A stretch of DNA of 62,382 nucleotides, counting the filler, from Jimgerdemannia flammicorona (taxonomy: Eukaryota), in the NCBI GenBank assembly GCA_003990765.1. It is 3 parts of 3 records of this genome, joined end to end, with 100 filler letters (N's around TTAATTAATTAA, not from the genome) between each part and the next. Parts side by side here need not be neighbours in the genome. Positions count along the whole stretch, not along the records: positions 1 to 20,734 come from RBNJ01001599.1; 2 more parts are not named here. One strand, written 5' to 3'. The position numbers and the translations under genes were made by a program. A model generated the notes under the pieces. It was not told the origin of the DNA, searched no databases, and was given only the letters and a program-made list of their open reading frames with translations. Positions 1 to 37,489 of the stretch are shown here, in pieces. The stretch's first letter is position 1; every line of letters begins with the position of its first letter.

Positions 1-598
1 TTACTCCTTGCAAGTGTGCTATAGCCCAGGGAATATGGCGGAAGATTTGATGGACACGGAGGGCTCTCTTGATTAGCCGGCTAGTGGTTAACATTTCGGC
101 AATGAGGTCTTCCTGGTCGCCTTCTTGAGTCTCATTGCGAAGGCGGTGTCCAATTTCATAGTCATGCCAGAGGGTCATTCGTTCGGTAGTGTCTTTGAGC
201 TGTTGGGTCATTATATACCGGTAGTTGATGAAGTGTCCAAGGTCCTCAGTGTAGAAGTTCAAGTGTTCGGAAGTATCTGGGCGCCAGATGGCCTTCTTGA
301 TAGCTTCAAAGATCAGAGTCTTTGGGCCAGGCAAAGGGGTAGAGTGGCAGGAGGTCTGGTTGGTTCGGCGAATAGGAGGCATTGTGTAGTGGGTACTTGG
401 TTCTTTGGTGCCAATCCTTGAGGCGGAGTAGGGTTCCTTAAATAATGTGGTCTTCATTTTGGCTCAGGTCATCTTGTCTTCTTTTGGTGAAATCACTTGA
501 CGGATTGGGCTGGTCACCAGTTATCGCACCATAATGTTGTCTGATCTTGTGGTCACAGGGTACTCCGAATTTGGGTAGGGTCAATTGTAGATGTCACA
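1..598 (-). mobile_element. Probable LTR-like segment beginning TGTGAC at 598 and running off the window start
   Basis: The minus strand starts TGTGACA at 598, with an abrupt composition change from the AT-rich flank. The same TGTGAC start occurs on the putative long LTR at 39577-41050. The other end lies outside the window. Confidence 0.35.
2..382 (-). CDS. Partial ORF of unknown function (MPPIRRTNQTSCHSTPLPGPKTLIFEAIKKAIWRPDTSEH...LIKRALRVHQIFRHIPWAIAHLQGV...)
   Basis: ATG at 382 and 127 codons open to the window edge by manual translation. Absent from the ORF track because it has no stop in the window. Confidence 0.45.
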   Translation of the reverse strand, partial: MPPIRRTNQTSCHSTPLPGPKTLIFEAIKKAIWRPDTSEHLNFYTEDLGHFINYRYIMTQQLKDTTERMTLWHDYEIGHRLRNETQEGDQEDLIAEMLTTSRLIKRALRVHQIFRHIPWAIAHLQGV

Positions 599-1419
599 CT
601 ATATATATATTCTTGGTGAAATTTAATATATCATATGAGGTGAGGAGCTCTACCTTTTTGGTGCTACAGCCTAGGGGGTTTCTGCAGCCTGGGGGGTTTC
701 TGCAGCCCAGAGAGTTTCTGTAACCAGGGAGTTTCTACCCCTCTGTATGTAAAAAGGACTGACAAAATATCATTTATTTTGGTAGAATTCTAAGCCAGAA
801 CTCCTGGGGCTAGATCAAGAGCAGGTATCTATCAGCATAGCCTAGCAGTATGAGGTTCTGGGCTAAGAGTTTACTCAACTATATGCTTATGTTATATTAA
901 AATACATCAGGTACAACATTTCGCTATCTATACATACAGACAACAATATAACCTCAGTAATGTTTTATATTCTGGAAAGAAGAGTCCAACTTAAGAGGAC
1001 AGTGGTAGAGTCTAGTATAATCTCACCTACAGTTTTGGGGTCCCATTTGTGATCAACATAGTTATCCTATTCTAACTATATGACTACTATAATACCATTA
1101 CCTTCAAGAAGAGCTTGGATACAATAGTTATTATACTCACAATAGATGATAGACTTATCAAGGCCTGAGACTGGCAGGTGGAGCCATTTTTGTAAGCATT
1201 AGGCAATCTTTTATAAGAGTTTGGCAGTCATTTTGTTTGGGTTGAGCAGTCTTTTGTAGGGGGTTGGGCTGATAGCCAGGCACCTCTTTCTGTAGTACTA
1301 GTTTAGCCATTATGCTAAACCCTACCAGCCCCTTAGCTCTACTCTGTAGTACTACTGGTATGGTACTGCAGTATAGAGCCAGGGTATCTATAAGGTAATG
1401 GGGCCCAAATCTGTAGTGG

Positions 1420-6482: not shown

Positions 6483-6884
6483 CTAATTGAACACGCGATC
6501 TTCTTCGGCGAACTCTAGGTCTCCCAACCTGGCATCTATGGGAGGCCAAACAAGCACGCTGGTATCGCAACAAACCTCATAGGGTCGAATGCAAGCAAGT
6601 GGGACATTTTTCATCGGTAATACAGTCTCTGTGTCCTTTCCTGGTCGGAGGCCGCTCATAATATTATCGAGGAGGTCTGGATTGTAGTTGCCCTCAAAGG
6701 CACGCTTCTCATATAGAGTCTCCCACAACAGGATTCCAAGGCTGTAATTGTCGCTCTTCTCGAAATCCACCCGCACTCCATCGAGATAGTCCAGTTACTC
6801 TTGAGCTGCTGAATACACTCAGACTGAAGCCAGCCAGTGCCACTGAGTCATCTTTGCGGATGATAACATTTTGGCAATCCAACC
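6483..6884 (-). pseudogene. Protein kinase (TKL-like) C-lobe remnant
   Basis: LDCQNVIIRKDDSVALAGFSLS (degenerate subdomains VIb-VII), GLSRWSA (VIII), then a frameshift to EKSDNYSLGILLWE...DNIMSGLRP (IX-X). No intact HRD or DFG motif. Confidence 0.7.
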
Positions 6885-7790: not shown

Positions 7791-8308
7791 TTATATCAAG
7801 CCACTAATGGAACGGGTCTGAAAACAATAGCCATCAATATAAGGGGGCCGGCCACTAATACCTGCAGTCCTAAAATTTCAAGTAATTTTATAATTATCTT
7901 TAAAGCCAGAAATCAATTAAAATTAAAATTAAATCTAATAATTATGTTATATATATAATACGATATTTTTCAAATGATACAATAATTAAATATTAATGCT
8001 CTTTTATATAGAATAATTTCAAATTATATACTAAAAAATTTATATAATTTATATTTATTTAATTATATCTTATCTGAGAAAGTATATATATGGAAATTTT
8101 TAAATTCTTATTTTAAAATTTATAAAGTTATTAATTTTTATTATATTTTTATCTTAAAAATTTTTCTAACTACCATATTTGAAGAAAAAGTATCAACATA
8201 TACAATCAGCAAATCATATAACAGATCTGTTATTTAGAGGTCTTAGTTTTATACTTTGATAACGAGAGCCTTGCTTGCAGTTTTGAAGCAAGAGATGTTG
8301 TGTGATAG

Positions 8309-11300
8309 TTAACGTCTTAATAGAATGAGCTTGGCGCACCATTGCCTGATCAGTCCACCCACAGATTGGGGCCTATAACGGGATTTTTTCTCTGAAAAAT
8401 GCACAAATACTCACAGGTCAGCTGGATCGAATCACCCACATTCAAATAGTAACACACGGATTTCCGACATACCTTCGAGATTCAGCTGGGTAAGGGTCGT
8501 GTTCTGCTTCAGAGACTCGGCCAGAGCACGGGTACCGTCAGCGCCGATTTTGTTATCTATGAATATTCACAGGTCAGCTGGATCGAATCACCCACATTCA
8601 AACAGCCACACACTGACTTCCGACATACATCCGAGATTCAGCTGGGTAAGCGTCGCGTTCTGCTTTAGAGACTCGGCCATAGCACGGGCACCGTGATCGC
8701 CGACGCCATTCTCTGAAAAAGGCACAAGTCAGCTGAATCGAATCACTCACATTCAAACAGTCACACATTGATTGCCGACATACTTTCGAGATTCAGCCGG
8801 GTAAGGGTCGTGTTCTGCTTAAGAGTCTCGGCTATAGCGCGAGCACCTTTATCGCCGATACCATTCACTGAAAAATGAACAAATACGCAGTGGTCAGCTG
8901 GATCGAATCACTCACATTCAAACAGTCACACACCGATTTCCGACATACTTTCGAGATTCAACTGGGTAAGGGCTGTGTTCTGCTTCAGAGACACTGACAG
9001 AGGACGGGCACTATTGCGGCTGATGATGCTAAACCCTGAAAAATGCACAAATATAAACAGAATCAGCTGGATTGAATCACTCACATTCAAACAGTCATGC
9101 ACTGATTTCCGACATACTTTTACTTTTGCGATTCGACTGGGCATGGTTCATGTTCTGCTTCAGAGACTCGGCCAGAGCATGGGCACCCTCATAACCGATG
9201 TTATTCCCTGTAATATTCATAAATACGCATAGGTCAGTTGGATCGAATCACCCACATTCAGACAGACACACACTGATTTTCGACATACATTCGAGATTCA
9301 GCTGGGTAAGCGTCGTGTTCTCCCTCAGAGACTCGGCTAGAGCATGGGCACCCTTAGCGCCGATTTCGTTATCTAAATAAATATGCAAAGGTCAGCCGGA
9401 TCGAATCACCCACATTAAAACGGCCACACACTGATTTCCGACATACTTCCGAGATTCAGCTGGGTAAGGGTCGTATTCAGCTTCAGAGACTCGGCCAGAG
9501 CACGGGCACCCTCAGTGCCGATTTTGTTATCTAAATGAGTACACACAGGTCAGCTAGATCGAATCACTCACATTCAAACAGTCACACACTGATTTCCGAC
9601 ATACTCCCGAGATTAAGATGGGTAAGGATCGTGATCTGCTTCAGAGACTCAGCCAGAGTACAGGCACCCTCATCTTTGATACTATTCCCTGAAAAATGCA
9701 AAAATACGCACAGGTCAGCTGGATCAAATCACCTACATTCAAACAGCACACACTGATTTCCGACATACATTGGAGATTCAGCTGGATAAGGGTCGTGTTC
9801 TGCTTTAGAGATTCGGCCAGTGCACGGGCACCCACATCTTTGATGCTATTCCCTGAAAATGCACAAATACTTATAGGTCAGCTGGATCAAATAACCCACA
9901 TTCAAATTGCCACACGCTGATTTCCGACATACAGGAGAGATTCAACTGGGTAAGGGACGTGTTCTGCTTCAGAGACTCGGCTAGAGCACGGGCACCCTCA
10001 TCTTTGATGCTATTCCCTGAAAAATGAACAAATACACACAGGTCGGTTGGATTGAATCACACACATTCAAACACCACACACTGATTTCCGACATACCTTC
10101 GAGAATCAGCTGGGTAAGGGCCGTGTTCTGCTCCAGAGACTCGGCCAGAGCACGGGCACCCTCATAGCCAATGCCATTCCCTGAAAAAGTCACAAATACA
10201 CACAAGGTCAGCTCGATCGAATCACCCACATTCAAACAGTCACACACTGATTTCCGACATACAGAGGAGATTCAGATGGGTAAGGGTCGTGTTCTGCTTC
10301 AGGGACTCGGCCAGAGCACGGGCACCCTCATCTTTGATGCTATTCCCTGGAAAATGCACAAATACGCACAGGTCAGCTGGATCGAATCACCAACATCCAA
10401 ACAGTCACACTGATTTCCGACATACTTTCGAGATTCAACTGAGTAAGGGTGGTGTTCTGCTTCAGAGACTCGGCCAGGTCACGGGCGCCCTCATGTCCGA
10501 TGCTATTCCCTGGAAAATGAACAAACACGCATAGGTCAGCTTGATCGAACCACCCACATTCAAACAGCCACACACTGATTTCCGACATACCTTCGAGATT
10601 CAGCTGGGTAAGGGACGAGTTCTGCTTCAGAGACTCGGCCAGAGCACGGGCACCCCCAGCGCCGAATTTGTTATCTAAATGAATACGCATAGGTTAGCTG
10701 GATTGAATCAAACAGTCACACCCTGATTTCCGACATACCTTCGAGAATCAGCTGGGCAAGGGTCGTGTTCTGCTTCAAAGACTCGGCCAGAGCACGGGCA
10801 CCCACATGGCCGATGCTATTCTCTGAAAAAAAATGTACAAGTATGCATAGGTCAGCTGGATTGAATCACCTACATTCAAACAGTCACACTATGATTACCG
10901 ACATACTTGAGAGATTCAGCTGGGTAAGCGTCGTGTTCTGCTTCAGAGACTCGGCCAGAGCACAGGCACCCGCATTGCCGATGTTATTCACTGACAAATG
11001 CACAAAAGCGCACAGGTCAGCTGCCACGTTCAAACAGTCACACACTGAATTTCCGACATACCTTCGAGATGCAGCTGGGTAAGCGTTGTGGTTTGCTTCA
11101 GAGACTCGGCCAGAGCATAGGTACCCTCATGGCCGATATTATTCACTGAAAAATACACAAATACGCACAGGTCAGCTGGATCAATTCAATTCAAACAGCC
11201 ACACACTGATTTCCGACATACCTCCGAGATTCAGCTGGGTAAGGGTCGTGTTCTGCTTCAGAGACTTGGCCAGAGCACAAGCACCCTCAGCGCGGATTTT

Positions 11301-12289
11301 GTTATCTAAATGAATACGCACATGTGAGCTGGATCGAATCACCTACATTCAAACAGTCACACACTGATTTCCGACATACCTTCGAGATTCAGCTGGGTAA
11401 GGGCCGTGTTCTGCTTCAGAGACTCGGCCAAAGCACGGGCACCCTCATTGCCGATGTTATTCCCTGAAAAATGCACAAATACGCACAGGTCAGCTGGATC
11501 GAATCACCTACATTCAAAAAGTCACACACTGATTTCCGACATACCTTCGAGATTCAGCTGGGTAAGGGCCGTGTTCTGTTTCAGAGACTCGGCCAGAGCA
11601 CGGGTACCCACATTGTCGATGTTATTCTCTGAAAAATGCAAAAATACGCATAGGTCAGCTGGATCGAATCACCCACATTCAAACACTGATTTCCGACATA
11701 CCGTAGAGATTCAGCTGGGTAAGGGTCGTGTTCTGCTTCAGAGCCTCGGCCAGAGCACGGGCACTCTCATAGCCGATGCTATTCCCTATAAAATGAACAA
11801 ATACGCGCAGGTCAGCTGGATGGAATCACCCCATTCAAACAGTCACACAAATTTCGGTCATACATTCGAGATTCAGCTGGATAAGGGTCGTATTCTGCTT
11901 CAGAGACTCGGCCAGAGCACGGACCCCGTCATCGTCGATGCTATTCCCTGAAAAATGAACAAATACGCACAGTCAACTGGATGAATCACCAATATTCAAA
12001 CAGTCACACACTGATTTCTGACATACTGGAGAGATTCAGCTGGGTAAGCGTCGTGTTCTGCCTCAGAGACTCGGCCAGCGCGAGTACATCCTCAGCGTCA
12101 ATACGCCCGCCTGAAGTTGAATAGATGCATGAGCAGATACGCACAGATCGCCAGTTGGAACTCGTCATACAGCTGCAATCAACAGGTCACTCTGTTCAAA
12201 CATACCATAGAGATTCAGCGTAGACTGGGTCGTGAGTAGAGTCTTCATGTTTGTGTAAGAAGCGATAAGAGCAAAGCGATAAATGTCGC
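8309..12289 (-). CDS. Multi-exon RNase-inhibitor-like (NLRC3-type) 28-aa LRR protein, one LRR per exon; ~686 aa if started at ATG 12248
   Basis: Exons 5'->3': 12289(or ATG 12248)-12206, 12110-12027, 11947-11864, 11785-11702, 11628-11545, 11463-11380, 11305-11222, 11145-11062, 10990-10907, 10822-10739, 10674-10591, 10509-10426, 10346-10263, 10180-10097, 10016-9933, 9852-9769, 9688-9605, 9530-9447, 9372-9289, 9207-9124(or 9118), 9035-8949, 8867-8784, 8712-8629, 8556-8473, 8391-8309 (TAA). Introns are GTATG...YAG, mostly with a CTGAC-type branch site, all phase 1. No in-frame stop after splicing. Consensus xNxIGxEGARALAESLKQNTTLTQLNLx. Confidence 0.88.
8392..12110 (-). repeat. Tandem array of 23 exon+intron units of ~150-170 bp
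   Basis: The intron consensus GTATGTCGGAAATCAGTGTGTGACTGTTTGAATGTGGGTGATTCGATCCAGCTGACCTGTGCGTATTTGTGCATTTTTCAG recurs in every unit. Confidence 0.95.
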
Positions 12290-12353
12290 CTAGTAAAGAA
12301 CTTTATTCCTAACCCTAGCCCTGGTCATCTGATAGCCGTTCCACACAATCTAA

Positions 12354-13099: not shown

Positions 13100-14699
13100 T
13101 CGCATTCTCTGACCCCACCCCACCATCTCCATCTCCAACCTGACTCCCTTCTCCTCTTCAACCCCTCCCCGTCACCACCAAGCCCCCTCCTTAGCCACGC
13201 CTCCTTCCGCATCGTCTTCCGCTACATCAAATATACAGTTTTGGCACACCCCTTAGATGCAATGATTTCGCGACTTTACTGAGCGCCATTTTCTGCTAGA
13301 CATAGACCTGACACGCGGGTTGCGGTGCTGTGTATAGCTGGATGTAGACAAGGTGATGGCTAGATCATGTTCTTTGAGGGAGCAAGCATCTGCGATATGT
13401 GATGTTTGATTACTATATCATTTTCATAAATCTTATTTAATAATATATATTAATTTACAATATAATATAATAATATTAAATTAGTAATTTTAAATAATAT
13501 ATTTAAATGAAATATTTTTAAATTTCTAAATATTCTTATTATAAATATATTAATATAAATGCTTAAAAGTTATATTTTATAATTAAAATACTTCAGAATA
13601 ATATATTTATTAATTATAAATTATAAACTTATAATTAATTAGTAAAAACCCTATAAAACTTACTAAACTTAATTAAGCTAATTAGAATATTATATTATTA
13701 TTTATAAATTTTAAAAAATATTAAGTTAATTATATTAAATTATATTTTAAAAATAATATTTTAGTTATTTTTTTATTTTAAATTTCTTTTATATACTCTT
13801 TTTAGCTATTTATATTTTATCTTTAGAAATATTATTGTTAAACTTTTTACACTTTTTATAAATCTATAATATTTATTATATCTTTATTATCTATATTATT
13901 TTAATTTTTATATATTTATTAATTATTATTATTATATATTATTATTATTTAAATTAGTAAAGTTGTTCAAATTCTGCCTATCCTATATTTAGTTGAAAAA
14001 CTACAATAATTAAAGATAGTACTCTCTGTAGTTGACATATTTCATAATCTCTTATAGAATACAGTAGTAGAATACTTTGGATCTTAGGATTTAGAAGACA
14101 TCTAACTAACTGACAGAAATAGTATACAATCAAATTACTTTACTTATATTATTATTATTATTATTATTATATAGAGTATAACTATAATATAACTAATTTA
14201 ATGATTTATTATTAAAAATATATTAATTAAATTATTAATCTATCTATTTGTTGAGATAACTTGTGATTTATATGTAGCGTCATTAATTGCCTACGTCACT
14301 AACTTTACGTCATCATTCATAACGCGTTACCTGCATATTATCCGCTCTTTATATACATCCCGCGTTATCATATAATTTACTTTATAATAATTTAGTATCT
14401 AAATTTCCTATTAGATATATATTAAGAAATAATATTAATAACAAATATAAAATTACAAAAATTAAATTACATTTGATATATTAAGAATACTAAAAGCAAA
14501 ATACTTTTATAATCAATTAATTCAAGTTAGGGTAAATTTCATTAGAAACTATATCATAATTTCTATTCCAATTAAATATATAATATTTATAAAAATCAGC
14601 ATATATCACTACAATCTAGTTTGAATTCCATAAATTCATCTGTATCTCTAGCAAGCAGTTGGCAAAGCTTATAGGAATTTGAACAAACTGCCTTAAGTT

Positions 14700-15000
14700 T
14701 TGACTACCAGATCGCCACCTTCTCCAATGTGCGCTTTTGGTCAGCCTGATGCGGTTCATTTCTGGGCACAATATGGTAGGTTATTACTATTATTTGTGTT
14801 GATTTTTTTTGATTTTTTGCTTGTTTGCTGACTCGAACCGGCAGAGTACATCAAGGGACCAGACATTGACCTACTGGGATTGCGATTTCGCCCAAAACTA
14901 CAGGGTCTGCAAATACATTGACGCCAGCGAGGGCGGCCCATACGTGATTGCAGAATCCGAGATTTTCAAACACCATTCTCCAATTTTAATACTAGGTGTA
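14700..15000 (+). pseudogene. Possible WD40-like gene fragment
   Basis: CpG-retaining island with an intron-like GTAGG...CAG (~14776-14844) followed by STSRDQTLTYWD, which resembles WD40 S-x-S-x-D-x-T-L-x-x-W-D. The upstream part has a stop. Confidence 0.2.
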
Positions 15001-15432: not shown

Positions 15433-18400
15433 CTAATCAAATTTCACGTCGCCAGGTTTGTTCTCCTCCTCCCATTCGTGAATATCGTCAGGTTTCGCCT
15501 CATAGAATATATCGTCCGGAAAGTTGGTTTTGTTCCGACGTTCCCGAGGAAGCATCCAGAAACATTCTATTTCCGCAATGGCCTGCAGAATAAAGATTCA
15601 CAAGATGAGTGCCAGGCGTGATTGCGGCGCGAAAACTCCACGCTTGTAAAGTATGCCACATACCTTTGCCCGCTGCAACCTGAAGGATGCCCCAGCATCC
15701 TGGAACGCTTCAGCATAATTGTCACCCAGCATAGCAATGAGCAAGTTGAGAAGGTAAACCATTGCGACGAAGGTGAACATGAAGCGGAATATATCGGCCA
15801 TGTGGCTAAACCCATCCCAGGCCTGCAGCCCGGACATGTCGCCCGTGATCCCCCAGTAAGTGTTCTTGAGCGAGGTTGAGAAGCTGCTGAAGGCGTTGGG
15901 GTCACCTTTCGGGCCGGTATCGTAGTTTCCGAGTAGTGCCCAAGTCCCGTGCCCGAAACCCACGAGGATGACGAATACGACGGCCAAGAAAGGAATGATT
16001 TGTTTCACACCGCTGAGGAGGGTGTTGACAAAAATGCCGATGGCTTTGAAGACGCGTAGTTGCTGGAGGAAGTGCAGCCATAGCAACAAGATGGTCAGGG
16101 CCGTCAGGTCGGTCTGAGTGCCCACATACCCAGCCTGCAAGTTGTTGACAGATATAGTGATGGGCAGGATATAGCACAGAAGGTCGATGAAGTTGTACAC
16201 GTTGAGGAAGTATTTCTTCGGGCCGTGGTAGATCAGTTGCCTAATCTCGTGACAAAGGAACAAAGAGCCGAGGGAGATAGCGCCGATTTGGAACTGAACC
16301 GACCACGCAGGCCACGCTGGCGGGTCGGAATTAGCGGGATACCGCTGCACCATCGGGTTCGTAGAGACGAACCAGAGGACCATGTATATAATCTCAACCA
16401 ACCAAATCAAGAGCCAACGGAACGCGGCATACGAACGCCATTTGAAATCTAAGCGAGGTTTTCGTAAAGCGTTGATTAAGATCAGGATCAGAAAAAAAAA
16501 AAAAAAAATCCGTTTGCAATGGCAAAACTCCTGAGGGGGTATCGTGGGATTCATACGTACCCAAGACTACATCCCAAAAGTCCGCCTCGAAGACCTCTTG
16601 GGCATTTTCCGAGTGAACAATCTCGGTGAAAACGCTATGCGCTTTCCAAATACCGTTCTGGCGGATAGGTGGGTCTCCATATCTTGTAGGGCGAAAGCAG
16701 AATGAGGTATGTAAGTTTCAGGGCAGGGAGGAACACAAAAACGAGGCGCTGACAATCAAAGCGGAACGATCGATACAAATGAGAGTCGTCTTCTTCGTTA
16801 AGATACTCGAAGGCACAGATTCTCCTCAGCGGTACGATGCAAAGTGCATGAAGGGTCTTCGTCTTGTTTTCTTCCATCAATCTCATTTGGTAGAGGAGCC
16901 ACTTGAACGGCGACCGGTACCATGTCAAGCGTAAGTTGCGATCGAACGATACACGCCCGTACATGAAAGGGAATTCACTGAGCAACCTGAGCTGAACGAT
17001 ATTATGTTCGTCGCTACTAGATTTCCCAGGTTTCCTTTTTACAAGCGTAACCTTGGTATAACCAACGCGGCAGAGAACTTTCTGGGCGTATTTTGGATAA
17101 TGTGCGATGATGGTTGGGAAAACAGCGGATACGTCGATCATGAAATCTACAGGATAATCATGAAGTTCAATCGTTAAACTTGACACAATAAGGAACAGAA
17201 TTCGAATAGTGCACCAATGTAAACCTAACCTGTTGGCACGAGTTGATTGCTCTTTTCATCCACGATGAGAGGTTCCGGAGGTTTCTTCTCCTTCCCCTTC
17301 TTTGAGGTTTTCTTGGGCTCAGAAACCGTTTCTAGCGTATCCGATTTGGGTTTAGCAAACATACCACCTTTCGGATGGCGCCTTGTGTGGTTATTTTTCC
17401 CCTTATGCGACGTGGGCGACATTTTCTCCTCTTCCAAAAACGGCATGTCTTCCTCCTTCTTTTTCACATATAGGTACATTGACTCCTCCGGAATGGGTGT
17501 GGTGTTCAGCGTGAGGAGCCTGGCAACTTCTTTTCGCAGCGATACTTCCGCAACCCCGCGAAGAATATGTTTGTCCGCCGGGATGACGTCTCGATCCTTA
17601 TGCCGGTACTTGTGGCGGATGACGCTCTCCCAAACTGAGTGACTATACTTGATGTAACTTTTGTCGGTGATAGGCGGTAGCTGAGGACCTTGTGGAATTT
17701 GCTTGGCCAAGGGTTCTGAATGATTGAGAGGAAATTTTGCCGAGTTAGTTCACGCGTTGGGATTTAAGAATACCGCAAAAAAAAAAAAAAAAAATGATAC
17801 GTTACCTGCAGGTTCCAGTTCCGGTTCCGAATCCGGGATCGCATCAACCGTAATATCCACACCGTCCTCGTTGAATGGATGAAGTGCGACAAGGACAAGA
17901 TCGTCTACTACGTCCTCAACCGTGCTACTTAAACCAATCCGCTCGGTAATGTCGACGCTATCATCACGAGTAACCGACATATTGATGGCGACATGGTCGG
18001 GGACTGGTTTAGAAACCTCAACTTTTCTTGCTGACGGAGATCGACGCAACTCGCCGTCGCCAGGAGGCGTAGGCTTTACCGTCTGCTTCACTGGCGACAC
18101 AGGAGCCACATGTTCGTCATCGTGAGGCACTGTCTCCACCTGTTCGTCATCGTGAGGCACTGTTTCCACTTGTTCGTCATCGTGAGGCGCTGTCTCCATT
18201 GACTGCCTCACTGTCTGCCTCACTGGCCGCATACGAGCAACCTGCTCGCCATCACGCGGTGGTGCCTCCTCCGGCTGTCTTACTGGTCGCACTGGTCGCA
18301 CACGAGCCCCCTGTTCGCCATCACGCAGTGGTGCCTCCACCAGCTGTCTTACTGGTCGCATACGAGTCACCTGTACGCCATCGGGAGACGCCGCTTCCTC

Positions 18401-20716
18401 AGGTGGCGTCATTGATCGCTCAAGAACCACATTGCTATCACGCCGTAATGCCTTCAGCAACTGCCTCGCTGACCGAGCACTATCTTTTGTTGCAGTTCTC
18501 ACCGGACGCGGCCGAGGCTCAGCAACCATTGGTACCATTTCCAGAGTCCGATTCATTGCCTTTGTAAGGTCGTACCCGGGATCAATGCATTCCGTCACGA
18601 GGTCGTTCTCGATGGCATTGCTGTCGGCCCTACGGTCGATCTCCCCTTGCGGAGAGCGCGTGCCAGGAATCGTAGCACTCCCGCCCTCCCCCCCTTCAAC
18701 AAGTCCCCCCATGTCATTCCAGTCGGTGGTGGTGTTCTCTGTATCCTCTATGGCACTCGTGTGGGTGGTAGTGTTCTCTGCATCTTCTATGTTACTCGCG
18801 TGGGTAGTGGTGTTCTCTGCATCCTCTACGTCCCTCGTGTGGGTGATGATGTTCTCTGCATCCTCTTTATCACTCGTGTGGATGGCGGTGTTCTCTGCGT
18901 CACTCGTGTGGGTGGTGGCGTTCTCTGCATCCTCTATGTCACTCACGTGGGTTGCGGAGTTCTCTGCATCCTCCATGTCACTCGTGTGGGTGGTGACGGT
19001 GTTCTCGGCATCATCTATGTCACCTGTATGGGCGGCGGCGTAGACCTCGGTGTGGTTTTTGAAAAAGGAATCAATAGTTCCAGAGCGATTGTTCACTTTA
19101 TGCACGAAGTCGGGGCCAGGGTTCGAGATGACTAATTCTTCAGGTTCCTCTACTAGAGGCAAGCCGAAATAGTCATGCTCGCCGGTGAAAGCGCGGGCGG
19201 GCGTTGGGTAGGGATCTGATGAATGAATTGCGGATGGGCCGGGGAGGGTATCTTGTCTCAGCATTTGCCGGCTAATTGCTTCTGGCCACCCATAAACGGG
19301 CCCGGGGGTAGGGGTATATTGTGACCAGTAACCGGATTCGGTCGAAGGTTGGCGAAACAGAGGAGGCCTGCGCTTAGGGTTCCAAATCCCCGAGGGCTTG
19401 CGGATGTTCATGGGCGGCTCCGGGCGTGGGGTTTTGGGCTGCGCAGCGTTGTCTGTGCGTTTTTTGATGACGAACGTAGTTTGGGTCAGGGTGGCAATCG
19501 CGCAGTCAACCAATGTCACGACGGACCCTTCTTTAAGGGTTCTGAGAGTGGTGCCGATGGCAAGCCTGGGATTCGCCTGACTAGAGAAATAGCCTTTATC
19601 GGTGGCAAACCATTGTTGGTTTGGCGCGCCGCCCGCGGCCTTGCGTTCGATTCGCAGATTTCCGCCAGCCACCGGAGTCCCGATTACTACAAAAACGGAT
19701 GACAACACGAGTGAGATTTGAGCTGTAATTGTGTGGGCTACATGAGACGAGAAGAAGTGGGCATGAAAACGTACTAGTGACCACTCTGCTCGAATCCTTG
19801 TTGACCAAGTACCCGTTGCGGAAGGCCCACAGCTGTTTCTTGGCATGGTAGTTTTTCTCGACCGCGAACACAATCCCACCGTCCTCACTGGCTTCCCATA
19901 CGAAGTGAGTACGGAACCTGCGAATCACAAACCACTGTGCTTTGTGTTCGTTTGATGAAGGCGGCGGGACGATCTTTGATTCCTTGGTCATGACGTCTTC
20001 AATCACTATATCGTTAAGAATGTCAAATGTTAATTACGGCTGGTAACACAGCTAATACTCGAAAACGTCATGATGAATCTTATTGGTACGTGCCTTCGGT
20101 TGGTTGTTTACGTGGGGTGTCATTACCGGCTCTCATGGAGAAAGGACTCTCGACTATGGGACCAGTGGTTGAGAAAAACTCGTCGTCGATGGAAAGCCCA
20201 ACCTTGAAGTTCCAGCTTTGCCTTTGGCGCGCCGCTTTGCCCTGTTCGGCTTCGACGAGCTGGATGCGGCCGTCGAGGTCGTCCACAACTAGATAACAAT
20301 CCGCCTTGGTGAACAAGAGACCATCCGATGTGCAACCCCATTGTTGGTTGTGATAGTTGAAAGGGTTCTTGCACGAAATAATAATTGCCGCATCGGCTTC
20401 ACTGCGGCCTGTTGATACAAAAGAGAATTAAACGGTTAAAGCAAAATTATATGCATTATATATTGGCAAGCGCAGTTGGGAACCTGTTTTTATGTCACAT
20501 TACCATTTTCAACATCGAGCACATGGTCAGTCCCATCGTTGATCAGAACGCCGTTCTGCGCACGCCACAGCTGGGACTTGTAGTTAACCCTGATGTCACA
20601 TTCCTGCAAAACCAATTTGTCTTCCTTGACGCACAGGACCTTGCGTGTGGACCACTGTTCAATGAAGAAGGGTTCTTTCGGGAAATCGAAGAGCCCGAAA
20701 CGGAACGGTTTCTCAT
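15433..20716 (-). CDS. Ricin-B-type lectin domains + low-complexity linker + fungal TRP-like ion channel; >1,500 aa, 5'-truncated by the gap
   Basis: Phase-consistent exons 20716-20504, 20408-20094, 20005-19775, 19686-17806, 17715-17230, 17146-16777, 16682-16561, 16448-15664, 15582-15433 (TAG). Lectin-like motifs: FPKEPFFI..SQLWRAQNGVLIN..VLDV, NQQWGCTSDG, KQLWAFRNGYLVN, NQQWFATDKG. Channel motifs: LCIVPL, DFKW, six hydrophobic segments with YNFIDL, pore FSSFSTSLKNTYWGITGD, LLNLLIAMLGD, TRP-box-like FRLQRAK-AIAEIE. Confidence 0.85.
18107..19035 (-). repeat. Coding tandem repeats in the linker of the lectin-TRP gene
   Basis: About 8 copies of ~13-aa TTHTSDxEDAENT (~39 bp, 18725-19035), about 3 copies of ~20-aa RxRPVRQxxEAPxRDGEQ (18200-18400), and 3 copies of 10-aa ETVPHDDEQV (30 bp, 18107-18197). 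Confidence 0.9.
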
Positions 20717-20734
20717 CTACCCCGCAAAAAAAAA

Positions 20735-20834
20735 NNNNNNNNNNNNNNNNNNNNNNNNNNNNNNNNNNNNNNNNNNNNTTAATTAATTAANNNNNNNNNN
20801 NNNNNNNNNNNNNNNNNNNNNNNNNNNNNNNNNN
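20735..20834. other. Assembly gap with six-frame-stop linker
   Basis: 44 N + TTAATTAATTAA + 44 N. Confidence 0.97.
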
Positions 20835-27700: not shown

Positions 27701-30700
27701 TCAAATCTTTGATGCTCTCAAGAATACCAAGTACTTCACCAAGTTGGATCTTATGTCAGGATACCACCAGATCTGAATCAAGCCAGAAAACATTTCCAAG
27801 ACTATGTTTATGACCCCTTTTGGACTCTACAAATTCCTGGTCTTAGTATTTGATCTCACCAATGTACCTGTTATATTCCAGACCCTGATGAATAAGATAT
27901 TTAAGAACTAACTATATATTTTCCTATTGATATATCTTGATGATATCCTGATCTTTAGTATAACTAAAGAAGAATACCTCAAATACATTTGAATAGTCCT
28001 GAAGATCCTGTGAAAATACAAGCTTTACACTAAGCTCAAGAAGTATAAATTCTTCAAGAAACAAGTTGAATATCTTAGCTATATTGTCTCTGCATAAGAA
28101 ATTCAAGTAGACCCACACAAGATAGAAGTAATTGAAGAATGGTCCATTCTATTGAACCTCACAGAACTCTGATCCTTCCTTGGCCTAGCTGGCTAGCTGC
28201 TTTGTCAGAAACTTCTCTGGTATTACTAAGCCACTGAGTAACCTCATGAGGAAGGCCCCATACTCAGACCACTATATACTCTGTACCTGAGACCTCTTCT
28301 GTCAACAAGTTTTCAAGAACTCAAGAACTACCTGACCCATACTCTAGTCCTGTATAATGCAGATCAAGACCTAAAATTTATAGTCACCACTAATGTATCA
28401 AATTTTGCCATTGGAGTAGTTCTGTTACAAGATGATGGCAAAGGATATTGTCTTATTACTTTTAAGTCCCATAAGTTAGTCCTAGCTGAATAAAAGCTAA
28501 CCACCTATAAGAAAGAACTACTAGCAATAATATATATACTAGACTACTAGTGATACTATCTAGAAGGTATTGAGTTTGATATCATTACTGACTATCAATC
28601 TCTCAAGTATATCAACACCCAATATACTCTGTTATATCTACAAGCCAAGTGGAGTCTCAAGCTTCAAACCTTCAATCCAATGATCATTTATAAGCCTGGC
28701 AAGACACTTGTAGTATCAGATGTTTTATCAAAATACTCTGATCTCACCACAATTATACAAGTCACCTTGATATCAGAATTCCTAGACCAAATCAGACAAG
28801 CTTACAAAGAAGATACAGTTACTACTAGAGTTTTCTCAAATGAGCTCAAGGATACATATACTGTCAAGAACAATCTGATCTATTATTAAGACCAAGTATA
28901 TCTACCTAAAAACATGAACCTATACTATAAGGTTTTGCAAGAATACCATGACTCCCATCTTGCTGGTTACCTGAGAATTGAGAAGACTGTTAAGAATATC
29001 CAACACTGCTACTATTGACTAAGTATTGTCAAGGAAATCAAGAACTATATTGCTAGCTGTAATCTATGCCAGCACAACAAGTCTACCAACTAAGTGCTGG
29101 CCAGTTTACTACAACTACTGTTAATTTCCACTAAGAAATTTGAACAAGTTATTATGGACTTTGTAACTCAACTATGAACTCAATCTGATGCTGACACTAT
29201 CATCATATTCATTGATCACCTCACTAAGACTATAGTTGCTGAACCAACTACTACCAATGCTACTATACTTGAGATTATAAGAATCTTCTTCAAGTCCATC
29301 TTTTGTCACTATGGCCTATTATAAGTAATTATCAGTGATTATGACCTCAAGTTCACCAGTCACTTTTGGCAAACTCTCTTCAAGATTCTGAGAATCCAAT
29401 TGGCTATATCTACTATCTTTTACTTACAAACTGATAGACAAACCAAGTGTATAAACAGAACTCTAGAATAAAAGCTTAGAAACTATATTTCTTATAAGCA
29501 AGATGATTGGGACCACTATCTGACTTATGCAGAGTTTGCATATAATAATACCATCCAATCATCTACTGGTCTTTTCCCTTTTATGGTTAAGATTCTAAGA
29601 CTCCTATAAGTCTATTCTCTTTTAAGAAAAGCAGTTAAATATAAGTTCCTACTGCCAAGAACCTCACAGACAAAATGGATAAACATTCAAGATTACTACT
29701 GTAAATCTTCAGAAGACTCAATAGCATCAAGCTAAGTATACTGATAAGAAATACTGTAATATTATTTATACTATTGGAGATCAAGTCCTACTATCTACTG
29801 AGAACCTTAAGATATAATCTCAAGTCAACTATCCTTTGAACAAGTTCCAATCCAAGTATATTGGACCTTTCAAGATCACTGAATAAGTCTCTGCATCCTC
29901 CTACTGCCTCAAACTATCTGAAATCATGAGAGTATACCCAGTTTTTCATATATCACACCTCAAGACCTAGAACTAGTCACCACTCTACCCTGGTCAAATT
30001 CCTAAGCTATCTGTCTCTATAATTGTTGAAGACCATATTGAGTATAAAGCTGAGAAAATTCTTAACAAATGAATCTGCTACCACTGTCTTGAATACCTAG
30101 TCAAGTGGATGGGCTACTCTGAATATAATGCTACCTGGGAACCACTGGTCAACCTCAAGAACTCTCAAGATCTAGTTCAAGACTTCAAGACAAAATACAT
30201 TATCCAATCTCTGTAGTGACTTTCTTGAATTATTGATGACCTATAGTAATGATTAGTACCTTATGCATCAGAAGTTTACTTTGAGACCTCAGAATTAGTA
30301 AATATTTAATAAATAAGAAGTCTACTAAAATAAAGCTATTAGCTAGATTTGAACCCCTTCCAGTTAGTTAGTCTGATAATAGGCCTCTGCCCTATATAAG
30401 GATAGCCAATCTCCATCAATATACTAATACAAGTTTGAGAAATTTTGGTTAAGTATATCTAGTCTTATATTATCTAAGAACTCAATAAGGATATTGGTTC
30501 TTAAAGAGAGAGGGATGTAACAATTTCATAGTCATATCTAGTCTTAGTATATTTTTGTATCTTTAGTTAGTCTTTTCTTATCATTTCTTGAATATTCTAC
30601 TATGTTTTGCCACCTTCTACTTGCTTAGAAACCTTCTCTCAGTACTCAGATACTACTAGAACACTCTTGTCTTTTCTTAGTATCAAGCATCTTATCTTAG

Positions 30701-31539: not shown

Positions 31540-34500
31540 GTCACTCCTAACTATTAGATAATAGCAAGAGCCTACTATCACTAAATATTATTCTAGTTCT
31601 CCTATACTAAGTAGTCTCTCTATCTTCCAATCTTACATAGTTTCCCCTTGTCTCTCTATATTAGAATTCCTATCTTATCTCTCTAAACTACTATACTACT
31701 CTACTAAAAACACCTTTTACTGGTAATATTCAGATGACACAAGACTCAGACAACACTTTTTACAATGTTTTTGATAAAAGAAGACTATCAACATAGACAG
31801 CAACAAGTATACTAGTAAGTATATCAGTCAGGGGAATAGTAGTGCCTTTGACTGATAGTATGTAGAGAGGAGGCAGAGAGACAGTTTGGGGATGCCAGAG
31901 CCTTCTATGGTTGGCCACAGTGTTGGTGGTAGAGAGAGGGGCAGACTGAGATAATAAGAAGAGAGAAGGATGATCTTTGCTAATAAGATCAAGATAGAGA
32001 GAATGACATCTGGTCTGGATAGTTGGTTGAGACTGGAGAAGGTATCAATGGCTTTAGTTGAGGGACAGGGAGGAGCCCCAATGGGAGAATTGGGCAGTAG
32101 GGGGGGGGGGGAAAGAGTAGGAGTGGGATATATAACTGCTGATGGAGCTGTGACTGAGGATCTGGCAAAAAATCTAGATGTGACAGTTGTTGGCAAATCA
32201 GGACAGAGAGAGGGCACAAGGTCTGGGGACCTGGCTGATGGCATGATAGGCATGGTATTAGCACTATTACTCAAAAAGTCAAGGTCAGAATTTGCCATCA
32301 CATTGTATTTCTGAGGCTTGACAGTGACTGCTAGGTGATTTTGGGACTGGTAGTGCAGGAGGTGAAGGGGGTGGCTTTGGTGAAGTTCTTGAAAGAGAAA
32401 AAAGGAGTTGAGGTTGAATTTGAAAAAGAGGCATTATTACTAAAGACTATGGAGAAGGGGGTAGTGGTGGACAGAATAGTGATCTCTATGACCAGGTGTA
32501 TGTACTGGAACCCCTGAGTGGTGTAGTTGATGGTGTTGGATCTTCCTATAGTATTGAGAGAGAAAGCCAGAGAGTTGATTATAGAGGTGGTCAAGGAATA
32601 TGGAGAAATCATAGATATCAGATTCAGAGTCTGGGAGGGTACTGAACTCCAGATAGGAGATATCAATATCAAAGTAAGACTGGCTAGGAGAGAGAATACT
32701 GGGAAGGTAAGAGATTGACTGGTAACCCTTAAGTAGAGTTTGGTTGAATACAAGGTTTTGTGGGTGAAGGAGATGCCAGAGAAAGAGGAGGACTTGCTGG
32801 AGGCTCTTGAGGATCTAGTAGAAGCAGTAGAGAGGAGGAGATTGGCTTGGAAAGAGTATGAAGCCAAGACAGTGGTGGAGATTGTGGATGGAAAAAAGAT
32901 CAGAATGGACCAGGTGGCCTGAGAGAAGATGCAGGGGAGGCAAATCAAGAAAGAGCTGTTGGGGAAGTTGGGAGAGGGTATAGCAGGCAGCAGTGCAGGA
33001 GAAGGGGGTACTGGACTGATGGAGAGTGCTTGGGCAGGGGAGTGTAGAATGGCTCAGGATGCAGCCCAGGGTGGATTGAGCAAGGAGAGACTGAGCAGTA
33101 TAGTAGAGGATACTAAAATGGGTGAGAAAGCATATCCTCAGTATGGTATCTTGAGTAGGGCAAGTGAGGAGGAGAAACTACTAGACATATTAGAAGAGAA
33201 GTAGGATGAGTTGGGGCAGAGGAGTGCCTTGGTGGATCCTGTGGTAGAGGTCAAAGGAGTTGCCTGGGGTATTGCTGAGGCAGTAGATGAAGAGAAGTGG
33301 CTGTGGAAGACTCTAGAAAGGGTGGTGGCTGAGGATCTGGGGGGAGAGAACTTCTAGATCCTAAGTAATAGGTATTGGGAGAAAATTCTCCATGAGGAGG
33401 AGGTGCCAAGGAAGATTAGGAATGAGATCCTGGTAGTGCTCTTGGAGTTGGAGGAATATCAAGTAGATGATCAGAGAGAGGAGGCCCTTTGAGGAATTGC
33501 AAATAACTAGACAGTATACTTATGGAACTTGAGAAAAGGGTTGAAGAAGTAAAGAGTAGTATAAATGAATTATTGGGCAGAAATGAAGGTTGTGGATAGA
33601 GTAGAGTGTCAGGAAATCTTGAAAGCACTGGATGCTCAGACTGTAGTGGAGGGTGAGTTAGAGACAGAGTAGTACTTGGATCTTGCTAGTGATGAGATGA
33701 GTATGGAATTCTAGACTAGACTCTCATTATCAACCATTATTCAATATAAATAGTACAACTAGAATCTTTTCTTTGAATGTGAATGAGTTGAGGAGAGTAG
33801 CATGGTACAGAAATATATTTGGCTAGTTGAAGGGACTGAATGCAGATCTCTTCTTACTATAAGATGTGTGGTATAAGGTAGACATGGACTTGCAGAACTG
33901 GACTAGAGAATGGAGTGGGGCAGCTGTGTGGACTGGGCAGGTGGGTATTCTGGTTCATAAGGGGATAGGGGACATTAGAGACATTGAATATTTGGGGAGT
34001 AGATTGGTATGGGGAGTGTGGAGGAGGTCTGGGTGGAATCCTTTGACTGTTGGATCATATTATTGCCCAGCTGAGAGGGGGGAATGTATAGATTGGATCA
34101 GAGACTTGAGGGAGACTGGTGTTATAGGGGAGACAGGAATTGATTGTCTGGGGGGAGATTTCAACATAGTTTGTAATAATGGAGTAGACAGAACTGATGG
34201 CAGGAGAGAAATGAGAGGCAGAAGCAGTGGATTGGACAATTGGATGGAGATTGAGAGGTTGAGCTCCTTGGTTGACTTGGGGTGACAGTTTTGGGTAGAG
34301 CACTGAATTTATACTCACTAAGTAGTAGGGCTGGGCTCCAGAATTGAGTGTTGATGGCAGAGTACTGGGGAGTGAATGTCTGGGACATATTAGAGGTAGT
34401 TTGGTGTCTGTGGTTGGATCACTAGGGTCTGATAGGAAGTGGGAGATTTAGGGGAAGTGGGGATGGGCCTGGACATTGGCAACTGAACTCTTCTTTGTTA

Positions 34501-37454
34501 GAGAATGACTCCTTATGGATGGACTGAGAGGTGGAAGTTATTGCAAAGATTAGCAGGTGGCAGGAACAGGGATTGGTGATTGGGGATTGCTGGTAGTGGC
34601 TGAAATCAAGTGCTCAGAGGTACTGGAGAGAGGCAGAAAAAGGAAGGAGTGTTCAGCAGTGGTAGTGGGTACTGTGGGCTTCACAGAGATTGGCAGTACT
34701 TCTGGAGAGGTGGGCCAGGTCACTGGAGGATTGGGGGCAGCCAATTGGCATATTTAGTAGATACAAAAAGAAGTCGATGAGCTAAAGAAAGTATTATAAA
34801 TGGAGGAAGAAGTTCAGCTGAAGGGGATGGTGGCAAGACTGTGGTGGCAGGAGTTGGAGGAGAGGGAGAGACCCACTAGGTTTCTTTTATGGTTACTCCA
34901 AGCTTAGAGAATCAGACAGTGGTGGGATGGTATTTTAGATGAGAATGGGGAGATGGTAGTCAGGACTCCTAAGATTTTGGATTTACTGAGGACTCACTGG
35001 GGGAATTTATAAAGTGATGAAGAACAGGGTGAGGATGTCCAGAATATTGAACAGTAGTTGGAGAATTGGTATCTAGAACCAGCTCTGGGTCTGGGGGCAC
35101 TGGGAGATCCAGTGAGAAGAGAGGAAGTATATGAGGTCTTGGCTTTAACAAGTAAGGGGACAGCTCCAGGAGAGGATGGGCTTCTCTGGGATTTTTGAAA
35201 GAAGATGGCTGGGGTGGAGATGGTATTAGAAGAGATGACAGCAATGAGTAATAAGGTCCTTCAATCTGGAACTTGGATTGGGGGCCAGTACCTAGGGCTG
35301 GTCTTCTTGCTCTATAAGAATAAGGGAAGGAGGGAAGATTGGAAGAACTGGTAGCCAATCATACTCCTGGACATGAACTGTAAGCTAGTGACAAAGATCT
35401 TAGTGGCTAGGCTTTAGGGGATTACTCAGCTGGTACTAGAAGTGGAACAGAGGATTTTTTGGTGGCTGGTTGATCTGAGATGGAACTGCTTGGGTCTATG
35501 AGATAATTGAAGGAGCTTGGGTAGCTGGAGTTGATGGCTGGTTAGTATTTCTGGATCAGAAGAATACATATGATAGAGTGAGGAGGGTCTGGCTAGAGGA
35601 AGTGCTGAAGTATATGGGAATTCCCCAAGAGTTTAGGAGGTCATTAATCAGTCTATTGGAAAACAGTCAAGCAGCATTGGTGGTGAATGGGCACAGGGAT
35701 GTGACTTTTCTGCTAGGTTGTAGGGTGCTACAAGGGGATCCTTTGTCATCCATTTTATATGCCCTTTTCTTGGAGCCTCTGTTGGATAGGATTTGGCATT
35801 GAATTGGGAGTTTGGATATTTTGAGAATTAACTAGAAGATGGGTGCTTTTGCAGATAATATGGTGGTTGGCCTGGGTTCATTGGAGGATGTGGAGGAATT
35901 AAGGAGGACTGTGGAATGGTATGAGAGGGGCTCAGGTGCTAAACTCAACTAGTACAAATGTGAGACTCTAGTGCTAAGTAGTGGAATAGTTGGCAGTGAT
36001 GTGATTGAAATAGTAGTTCCAACAGGAGAACCAGTCTGATACTTGGGAATCTACTTTTTGATGTATGGGTCCCTTCTGCCCCATATATAGTGGGAATAGC
36101 AGCTACTAGTATAGGGGAACATTCTCTTAAGGTGGGATAGTTGGCATATATCCTTGGCAGGAAGGGTAATGGTGCTGAATGTGTATTAGCTGCCAAAGCT
36201 ATAGTATGTGGAGTATCATTTGGACTTCTCAGTATGGGTGGTCAGGTGACTTCTGAAAATAGCAAGATCATGAATTTAGGCTTAGTGGCATAGTCAGATA
36301 GGCTGGGAGGTTCTGACTCTACCTGTTGACAGAGGCAGGCTGGGCTTAGTAGACTTCACCAAGCACCTATATTGTCTGAGAGCATAATAGCTGAAGAGGG
36401 CAAGTGAGTCAAGAGGCTGAGAGTGGGTGCTACTTCTATAGAGGGTGTGGGAAGTCCAGTATTCTCCCTATAAAGTGACCAGTGACCTGCTTGTAATGGT
36501 GGCCATAGATAGAAGCAAGAGGATATGGTTCAAAGGCTTTTGGTAGGGTGTGGTCAATAGTGTAAAGAGAATTGGACTTTGGTGAAGGGGTGATAAGAGG
36601 GAGGAGGACTGGGGACTATGGATATGGAGATGAGACTGGCTACTGCTGAGAGATACATTGATGGAGGATTTTTAGCTTGGCAATGGAATGGAATGTATGC
36701 AGGGGCTTGGGGAAGACATGTGGCCTGAAGCATGGCAAAGGGTAGAGATTGGTGAAAAGTGGGACTGAAATAGTGTTTGGCTTTGGAGCAAATGAGTGAT
36801 GTTATAGCTTCCCCCCAAGTTCTGGATAGTATAGTGGAGGTTTCTATGGCAAAATGTGATGCTGAACTATTAATCAAGGCACTTGGTGGCAGATGGCACA
36901 TTTGAGTATGAGGAATGCTTAGACATTGGTCAGGAGGGGGGAGTGATACAAATGCCTAGGAGAGTGTGAAGTTTTGAGAGAGTTTTGACACAGTATTATT
37001 AGTAGACTAGAATTGCAGTCCCTGGAGGAGAGAGAAGGAGGGAGATGGGGGGACCTCTGATATAGGTTAGTAGATAGAATTGGGAATGAATGGTTGATCT
37101 TGAGATGGACTCTGACAATCTGGATAGGGCTGGCCAGTCATTGGCTTTATGTCTTTGAGGAGGGCCAGTGGGTTGAAGTTGGAGCTAGGGTAGCATATTG
37201 AGAATGGTTACTACTTGTCATTTTGAATAGTTGGTAGAGAGGGTGGGGACTGGGTAGAGGGGGGCCATCAGAATCTGGTGAACTATATTTGCAAGAAGAG
37301 TATAGAGAGGGTTCAGGTGGTAGGTGGGTAGGTTGTCCTTTGGCAGAGAGGAATGAAGAGTAGGGAGAGGGATCTGAGGGGCATTGGCTGAGGGGTTGTG
37401 GGTATATGTGTATTATTATTTATAAATTAAGTAGTAATAAATTGAAGTCTGAGT

Positions 37455-37489
<35 letters not shown>

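Follow-up and report, generated by a model that had tools for sequence, protein, structure and literature searches.

A tandem array of leucine-rich repeat (LRR) exons, lying on the minus strand at 8473–12110 of a 62,382-nucleotide stretch of Jimgerdemannia flammicorona DNA (NCBI GenBank assembly GCA_003990765.1), shows signs of diversifying selection at a few codons around its exon borders, and most firmly at the two junction codons – the last full codon of each exon and the codon that the following intron splits. The stretch, referred to here at its full length as the window, consists of three parts of three records joined end to end with filler between them, and the array lies in the part taken from RBNJ01001599.1 (positions 1–20,734). 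A preliminary description had proposed that the variable residues are under diversifying selection and that re-pairing of exons adds diversity at the junction. The first proposal is supported: the ratio of non-synonymous to synonymous change (omega) exceeds 1 against both intron and local synonymous rates, and four of the 28 codons remain significant after Bonferroni correction. The second, taken up below, is not.

We consider it probable that the array belongs to a transcribed minus-strand gene made of 23 exon-plus-intron cassettes, each encoding one LRR of the ribonuclease-inhibitor (RI)/NOD type, in which a stripe of residues at the junction is kept diverse by selection.

Architecture of the array

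The array comprises 23 exons and 22 internal introns in units of about 165 bp, a period that Tandem Repeats Finder (TRF) reports at 8722–12078 as 20.7 copies with 80% matches. Exon size is 84 nt in 22 of the 23 exons and 87 nt in the remaining one (9035–8949), and every exon is open and bounded by an AG acceptor and a GT donor. The introns (64–88 nt) form a single sequence family with a CTGAC-like branch motif, and all of them interrupt the frame in phase 1, i.e. after the first base of a codon; the donors begin with GTATG in 22 of 23 cases – exon 19 being the exception – and with GTATGTC in 21. Each exon codes for one 28-residue LRR of the RI/NOD type and, as all 23 preserve the frame, skipping any of them would leave the frame intact. 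One repeat per frame-preserving exon, with the border at a constant position of the motif in 23 of 23 cases, is the architecture of the NOD/NLRC genes.

The translations of the 23 exons have a mean column identity of 78% and are 63–89% identical to the first unit; in their alignment at least 90% of units conserve the L, N and I/L residues. Their class is clear from several features. The repeats fall within the 28–29 residues of RI-type LRRs (28 codons in 22 units, 29 in one) and carry the LxxLxLxxNxL strand motif followed by a helix-forming segment, and the exon profile finds rabbit NOD2 (5irm/5irl, E ~2e-9) as its best solved match, with a further match to DRC5 (8glv, E 4e-6). An open reading frame (ORF) that reads through the introns matches 6742 library proteins at E ≤ 0.001; on such an intron-including frame, Pfam LRR_6 scores 18.3 bits (E 0.0023), the gathering cut-off being 23.4.

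Variation at the exon junction

Counted over 22 units (the 87-nt unit was dropped), variation is concentrated in six codons. Codon 28, the last full codon of the exon, which follows ‘LNL’, has seven residue types (E in 11 units, G in four, S in three, and Y, L, Q and K in one each), and the split codon, numbered 1 here, has ten (W in five units, G in four, R, D, V, K and N in two each, and E, M and Y in one each). Codon 3, the x of ‘NxI’, has six types, and codons 5, 6 and 7, which come after NxI, have four, six and seven, respectively; the other codons mostly have one to three. This agrees with the preliminary description, in which the core was nearly fixed while the two residues after LNL and those after NxI varied.

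The second of the two residues after LNL had been described as the product of a codon assembled from the last base of one exon and the first two bases of the next, and so it is, with one acceptor pair (GC) to be added to the earlier list. Over 24 joints, the donor base is G in ten, A in eight and T in six, and never C; the acceptor pair is GG in 11, AT in five, AG in four, TG in three and GC in one. Eleven of the 15 donor–acceptor combinations are present in linear order, and T/AG – the slash standing for the intron – is absent from the 24 joints, as had been noted.

Positions 1 and 2 of these six codons have a diversity of 0.49; the aligned introns have 0.146 and the third positions of the other codons 0.159. 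Faster change at the joints than in the introns is typical of a binding surface under selection for diversity. Right-anchored, unaligned intron ends, whose diversity is inflated by indels, were excluded as a neutral yardstick. The heterozygosity of the split codon (0.92, with 11 codon types) is reached by none of 62 intron triplets, nor is that of codons 3 and 6, and that of codon 28 is reached by three. The peak at the end of the exon is narrow: the last four exon bases have diversities of 0.52–0.69, and the adjoining core codons and donor bases each lie at 0–0.17. The last exon base, which is position −1 of the donor and would be expected to be constrained by splicing, is the most variable (0.69) of the exon and the 25 donor-side intron bases scored.

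Evidence of selection on the variable codons

By the Nei–Gojobori method, the non-synonymous and synonymous distances (dN/dS) are 0.77/0.37 at the variable codons and 0.11/0.24 at the remaining ones. A codon model with branch lengths taken from the introns gives an omega of 4.5 for the six variable codons versus 0.63 for the rest (likelihood-ratio test statistic, LRT, 57). When the synonymous rate is instead a local one (codons 28 and 1–7), omega for the variable codons is 3.3 (LRT 15.8, p 7e-5), with the two junction codons reaching 5.8 and the other four (3, 5, 6 and 7) 2.3.

The preliminary description had asked for a check of dN/dS site by site across the units, and a tree-based per-site model places four sites above 1 after correction: the split codon (omega 10.1, Bonferroni p 1e-10), codon 28 (6.4, p 3e-6), codon 5 (3.9, p 0.009) and codon 6 (3.6, p 0.011). 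Codons 7 (omega 2.8) and 3 (2.2) are not significant. The unit tree on which such models depend is nearly a star; its sole supported clade (97%) is made up of units 6, 10, 17, 18 and 23, which have an AT start and a distinct intron end in common and are called here the AT-NK subfamily. On a fully star-like tree of 20 units (1, 19 and 20 dropped) the same sites emerge together with codons 3 and 7, a tree of this kind over-counting shared states.

A further feature of the variation concerns its relation to overall divergence. Among the 25 closest pairs of units (8% flank divergence), the split codon differs in 92% and codon 28 in 76%, rates equal to those of all 231 pairs (for the split codon, 0.92 versus 0.91). 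This lack of scaling with flank divergence fits concerted evolution of the scaffold together with selection against homogenisation of the variable sites and, because of it, we take omega as evidence of selection for diversity and not as an exact rate.

The same observations can be turned towards a neutral account, in which the x positions of the LRR are unconstrained, gene conversion homogenises the core and the introns, and the variable sites are fast by comparison only. The star-like unit tree and the flat relation between variable-site differences and flank divergence both favour it, as do the somewhat higher synonymous diversity in codons 1–7 (local alpha 1.68, versus 1.14 in the core) and the core omega of 0.71 under the local-rate model, which amounts to weak constraint. 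However, the variable codons retain their excess when measured against the synonymous rate of their own neighbourhood, and the four-base spike at the exon end stands between a near-invariant core and a near-invariant donor, where a conversion tract that homogenised the flanks would erase it unless selection opposed this. That the spike culminates in the very base that splicing would be expected to hold in place is a third difficulty, and we regard neutrality as an unlikely explanation of the pattern.

Structural setting of the variable residues

In the register of the motif, L1xxL4xL6xxN9xL11, codon 28 encodes LRR position 7, the split codon position 8, codon 3 position 10, and codons 5–7 positions 12–14. 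The fold was predicted for a stand-in relative, P0028 (55% identical over the matched stretches), rather than for the array’s own spliced protein. The LRR part of this model (predicted local distance difference test score, pLDDT, 76–92) has a three-residue strand and a helix of 10–11 residues in every 28, and its best matches in the PDB are ribonuclease inhibitors (4peq, 1a4y, 3tsr; E ~1e-15), followed by NLRP3, NLRP14 and NOD2. DSSP assigns the strand to positions 3–5 and the start of the helix to position 12 or 13, with junction positions 7 and 8 falling just after the strand. From these strand and helix limits, the variable residues of the array are predicted to lie at the strand exit and in the ascending loop. 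The mid-strand residues at positions 3 and 5 (Q and N) are conserved.

A point of reference is provided by rabbit NOD2, for which a concave-face ligand pocket has been proposed that includes R803, F831, W887 and V915, a 28-residue series, with G888 adjoining W887 (PMC4906405, accessible text). Profile alignment to this protein, read together with that account, places W887 at LRR position 7 and G888 at position 8, i.e. at the two positions encoded by the junction codons. The earlier assignment of the variable residues to the ligand-binding face is in keeping with this, in that positions 7 and 8, as set by the motif register, fit the rim of the binding face. Given the periodicity of the solenoid, the variable residues would stack as one stripe over the 23 turns.

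Splicing and the question of junctional diversity

Parts of the stretch occur in six public sequencing runs, none of them recorded as RNA; two – X1 and X2, from two different studies – were taken as possible RNA by guess. Contigs were placed on 8250–12350, with the best 15 of 229 joints and 32 of about 7,900 pieces considered; segments without contig cover, such as 8250–8386 (in all four runs) and 10990–11126 (in X1 and X2), are uninformative. In X2, a 346-nt contig (record 8) carries 8949–9034, 8784–8867 and 8629–8712 end to end with 0–1 mismatches, and in X1 a 246-nt contig (record 2) joins 8949–9034 to 8784–8867 with no mismatch. Two of the 24 joints are confirmed in this way, those between exons 20, 21 and 22, exactly at the predicted borders and in linear order, and the exact joining of these exons means that two split codons, A/TG and A/AG, are seen assembled. 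The simplest reading of these contigs is that they derive from spliced mRNA.

Hundreds more contigs match the conserved cores and differ in the variable part, which suggests that the source organism has many paralogues. The joints that appear as long skips or as backward jumps have unmatched sequence inserted between the segments they connect, and fit transcripts of such paralogues; because paralogue contigs explain them, the long skips were not counted as exon skipping. No clean exon skip of this locus is found among the best 15 of the 229 joints.

These data bear on a different view of the array, in which diversity would be combinatorial: phase-1 exons would be alternatively spliced to give many LRR solenoids, each pairing creating a new residue at the split codon. 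All 23 exons do preserve the frame, 11 of the 15 donor–acceptor combinations already occur in linear order, and modular LRR exons are alternatively spliced, according to the accessible parts of the respective papers, in human NLRP3 (PMC6642158) and in the ROCO genes of brown algae (PMC11378527). Yet both joints in the contigs follow the linear order, with no clean skip among the joints considered, and the composition of the junctions lends the idea no help. The absence of T/AG, which the preliminary description had linked to re-pairing, carries little information, since the 24 donors and acceptors, if paired at random, would yield no stop in 29% of cases (p = 0.29). Over the possible forward skip pairings, TAG arises in 13 of 276 (4.7%), against 4.2% expected from base frequencies, which shows that T/AG is not depleted. 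Moreover, Leu is the one residue type that skipping would bring in beyond the existing ten, the unverified terminal acceptor being included in this count. The proposed junctional diversity is not upheld by these results, there is no sign that the array has been shaped to tolerate re-pairing, and we hold alternative splicing to be a very unlikely source of the variation.

A broader version of the idea would make the split codon itself a generator of diversity: since the intron cuts the codon of the most strongly selected residue, any unequal crossover or cassette shuffle within the conserved introns, or any exon skip in RNA, would create a new position-8 residue without point mutation, and the array with its paralogues would then serve a soil eukaryote, perhaps a fungus of an early-diverging lineage, as a repertoire for combinatorial recognition. 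We mention this as a speculation to which we give very little credence. In a milder form, which may hold, cassettes rearranged within the introns over evolutionary time would bring new residues to position 8 as a matter of course.

Related loci in metagenomes

A scan of metagenomes found nine loci, eight of them distinct (L003 repeats L002). The eight comprise 21 units, whose 84-nt phase-1 exons share the register of the array and have GTATGT-like donors, and whose introns have other sequences; as the search pattern demanded 84 nt between an AG and a GT, the exon size is partly a matter of construction. The relatives vary at positions 28, 3, 6 and 7, and also at 10 and 24, and their junction codons encode E, G, A, W, R, F, W, S and S.

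In L001, the LRR exons are directly preceded by a frame of 409 residues (40–1266, plus strand) that contains ankyrin repeats (Ank_2, E 2e-62) and gives a weak hint of Sel1, which suggests that the LRR cassette has been combined with varied N-terminal domains. The upstream domains of the related arrays (the ankyrin region of L001 and an unnamed helical region in L002 and L005) have no counterpart in the window, all matches having E > 1. One database ‘protein’, P0001, reads through the introns of a related array and is a gene-calling artefact.

The retention of this architecture in eight other loci is one of several observations that count against regarding the array as decaying or non-functional, that is, as a recent tandem expansion of cassettes without a role in protein. 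In favour of such decay one may cite the abrupt end of the array in a non-LRR tail (8391–8309), the degenerate state of units 19 and 20, the abundance of transposon remains in the window and the unverified ends of the gene. Against it, all 23 exons are open with both splice sites kept, dN is below dS in the core, and exact spliced contigs occur in two runs from two studies; taken together, these make decay extremely unlikely.

A model for the array and its weak points

The interpretation that we favour, a transcribed gene whose junction stripe is kept diverse by selection, can be laid out as follows. The phase-1 intron always separates the first base of the LRR position 8 codon from the other two, and the split codon would be a by-product of this inherited intron position. 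The scaffold and the introns would be kept alike, probably by recent duplication and concerted evolution, and selection would keep apart, or drive apart, the stripe – positions 7 and 8, then 12–14 and, more weakly, 10. The residues of the stripe would exit the β-strand towards the helix, and the stacking of 23 turns could produce a variable rim along a ligand-binding concave face. The diversity would be encoded in the germline, through point changes in the last base and the first bases of the exons.

Several points weigh against this interpretation. The codon tests take the tree as fixed and gene conversion as absent; the tree is nearly a star and, if core and introns have been homogenised, omega is not literally a ratio of rates. 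The class of variable codons was chosen after seeing the data, which makes the corrected per-site tests the fairer ones; these are passed by four of 28 codons and failed by codons 3 and 7. The intron 3′ ends that adjoin codons 1–7 are themselves variable and rich in indels, so the case for codons 3 and 5–7 is weaker than that for the junction. As to transcription, the library type was guessed, an intron-less DNA copy could yield the same contigs, and one unspliced X1 contig (9989–10125) spans the intron after exon 13. Both ends of the gene may be misplaced, the 5′ exon and the 3′ tail being putative features read from the sequence.

Gene layout

All features of the gene are on the minus strand and are given here in the order in which they would be transcribed, each LRR exon with its junction codon. 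A putative exon at 12206–12289 precedes the array, either as an upstream 84-nt exon with a candidate AG acceptor at 12291–12290 or as a first exon starting from an ATG at 12248–12246; its terminal strand, ‘LNLY’, is degenerate, it supplies the G of the first split codon, and a piece of an X1 contig covers 12205–12288 with six mismatches. Intron 0 (12111–12205; 95 nt, GTATGT...CAG) is unlike the array introns.

The first eight LRR exons lie at 12027–12110 (exon 1; G/GC, Gly), 11864–11947 (exon 2; A/GG, Arg), 11702–11785 (exon 3; T/GG, Trp), 11545–11628 (exon 4; G/AG, Glu), 11380–11463 (exon 5; G/GG, Gly), 11222–11305 (exon 6, of the AT-NK subfamily; G/AT, Asp), 11062–11145 (exon 7; G/TG, Val) and 10907–10990 (exon 8; G/TG, Val). 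They are followed by exons 9 (10739–10822; A/AG, Lys), 10 (AT-NK; 10591–10674; G/AT, Asp), 11 (10426–10509; G/GG, Gly), 12 (10263–10346; A/GG, Arg), 13 (10097–10180; T/GG, Trp), 14 (9933–10016; G/GG, Gly), 15 (9769–9852; T/GG, Trp) and 16 (9605–9688; T/GG, Trp), and then by two adjacent members of the AT-NK subfamily, exons 17 (9447–9530) and 18 (9289–9372), both with A/AT (Asn).

Exon 19 (9124–9207; T/GG, Trp) has a degenerate strand and a second in-frame GT donor 6 nt further on, and exon 20 (8949–9035; A/GG, Arg) is the divergent 87-nt unit with one extra codon. Exons 21 (8784–8867; A/TG, Met, assembled in the contigs) and 22 (8629–8712; A/AG, Lys, assembled in the X2 contig) come next, and the last LRR exon, 23, is again of the AT-NK subfamily (8473–8556; T/AT, Tyr). 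Intron 23 (8392–8472, 81 nt) belongs to the array-intron family and leads, through a G/AG (Glu) junction codon, to a putative terminal coding piece of non-LRR character (8309–8391; 26 codons, then TAA at 8311–8309), as read from the sequence.

Many of the array introns are open and in frame, giving intron-retaining ORFs of about 100 residues (e.g. 10376–10693, minus strand). Long plus-strand ORFs over the array (e.g. 11328–11948) are by-products of the repeat.

Other features of the window

The window is a mixture of transposon remains (pieces of reverse transcriptase and integrase), GC-rich gene blocks and spacers of 5–15% GC. The GC-rich block that holds the LRR gene is bounded by an extremely AT-rich spacer at 13400–14700 (5–17% GC per 100 bp), and several AT-rich tandem repeats are found at 13434–13951. 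Further along, a minus-strand frame of 322 residues (15601–16566) matches Pfam Ion_trans (E 2e-15) and PKD_channel, with no homologues in a word-indexed search; its nearest Atlas cluster is most frequent in Mucoromycota (phylum known for 9 of 75 members), a weak lead. Another, GC-rich frame of 724 residues (17753–19924, minus strand) has no Pfam family and contains 39-bp tandem repeats at 18711–19023 and 30/69-bp repeats at 18106–18360. On the other side of the array, a 103-residue minus-strand frame (6486–6794) resembles a protein kinase C-lobe, with PK_Tyr_Ser-Thr below threshold (E 0.012, 15.4 bits); neither an N-lobe upstream of it nor any homologue turned up, and the frame is possibly a fragment.

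Among the transposon remains, Ty1/copia-type pieces (RVT_2, Pol beta-barrel, gag-pre-integrase and an SH3-like domain, in several frames) occupy 52746–55638 on the minus strand. At 28554–28886 and 48055–48480, both on the plus strand, lie similar frames that match RNase H-like and integrase zinc-binding domains, apparently a Ty3/gypsy-type element in two copies. The plus strand at 32001–38000 has a GC skew of +0.28 to +0.51 (2-kb windows), around an RVT_1 fragment at 35479–35799. The window holds 176 N; a frame at 20493–20786 with a run of unknown residues, far outside the array, is read as an assembly gap.

Comparison with known systems

Strict exon modularity of RI-type LRRs has been described by Hoss et al. 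(2019; PMC6642158). According to the accessible part of that paper, the human NOD/NLRC genes have, like the array, one 28-residue RI-type repeat per frame-preserving exon and an exon border at a constant place of the β-strand in every repeat. The LRR region of NOD2 is also the best solved relative of the array repeats in sequence. Unlike NOD/NLRC genes, the array is accompanied by no NACHT domain that could be found in the window: tblastn with ten relatives, five of which have NACHT (PF05729), gave 381 matches, all of them inside the array. As the 5′ end of the gene is putative, this absence applies to the GC-rich sequence upstream, over approximately 1.1 kb. The same ten relatives revealed no second LRR array in the window, and no Pfam family was found in the ORFs upstream of the array. 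The repeats and introns of the array are presumably far more alike than the exons of vertebrate NLR genes. A further difference is that the two border codons are the fastest-changing ones in the array, which the accessible text of PMC6642158 does not state for NOD/NLRC genes.

Ribonuclease inhibitor resembles the array in having 28-residue repeats, and it is the best match of the model of P0028, itself a stand-in. It alternates repeats of 28 and 29 residues, two per exon. NLRP genes have two repeats per exon, alternating between 28 and 29 residues (PMC6642158, accessible text).

The ROCO genes of brown algae have been studied by Zambounis et al. (2012; PMC3341825) and Teng et al. (2024; PMC11378527), whose accessible text describes tandem arrays of 24-residue LRRs, one per 72-bp phase-2 exon, in genes that carry ROC-COR domains, with exon shuffling, several splice variants and positive selection at four sites of the concave face. 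What these genes and the array have in common, as far as that text goes, is an exon for each LRR, a fixed phase, tandem arrangement and selection at a few positions of the binding face; exon shuffling and alternative splicing are proposed there as sources of diversity. The selected ROCO sites (14, 16, 18 and 19) lie inside the exon, whereas the top sites of the array lie at the junction. The array exons are, in addition, 84 bp long and in phase 1, and no ROC-COR was found in the subset of ORFs scanned.

In fungi, the repeats of NLR proteins are of the WD, ankyrin (ANK) and tetratricopeptide (TPR) types, and LRRs were not encountered among them by Dyrka et al. (2014; PMC4986451), as far as the accessible text shows. 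Those repeats undergo concerted evolution, and their selected codons map to the binding surface; near-identical tandem repeats with a few codons under diversifying selection are common to them and the array (PMC4986451, same portion of the text). The identity of over 85% across at least 100 residues that characterises the fungal repeats there (PMC4986451) is not reached by the array, with its mean column identity of 78%. The other hallmark of the fungal type, positive selection confined to a small set of fixed codons in each repeat, is supported for the array. Paoletti et al. (2007) are said to have reported fungal NLR repeat domains with high internal conservation.

A literature search returned no paper combining ‘split codon’, ‘leucine-rich repeat’ and ‘exon’, and nothing specific on 84-bp LRR exons apart from PMC6642158; the junction as the hottest spot of variation may be an unreported detail within a known kind of gene. 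Modular LRR exons, positive selection at the binding face and the possibility of alternative splicing are all in print already, and the value of the array lies in a new instance and in the detail of the junction. It is a clean natural case of an invariant scaffold with a narrow, varying stripe of surface residues. As the contigs suggest many paralogues, in the source organism as well as in soil metagenomes, this family could amount to a large repertoire for recognition, and one that would lie in a group of organisms whose immune-like receptors are little known.

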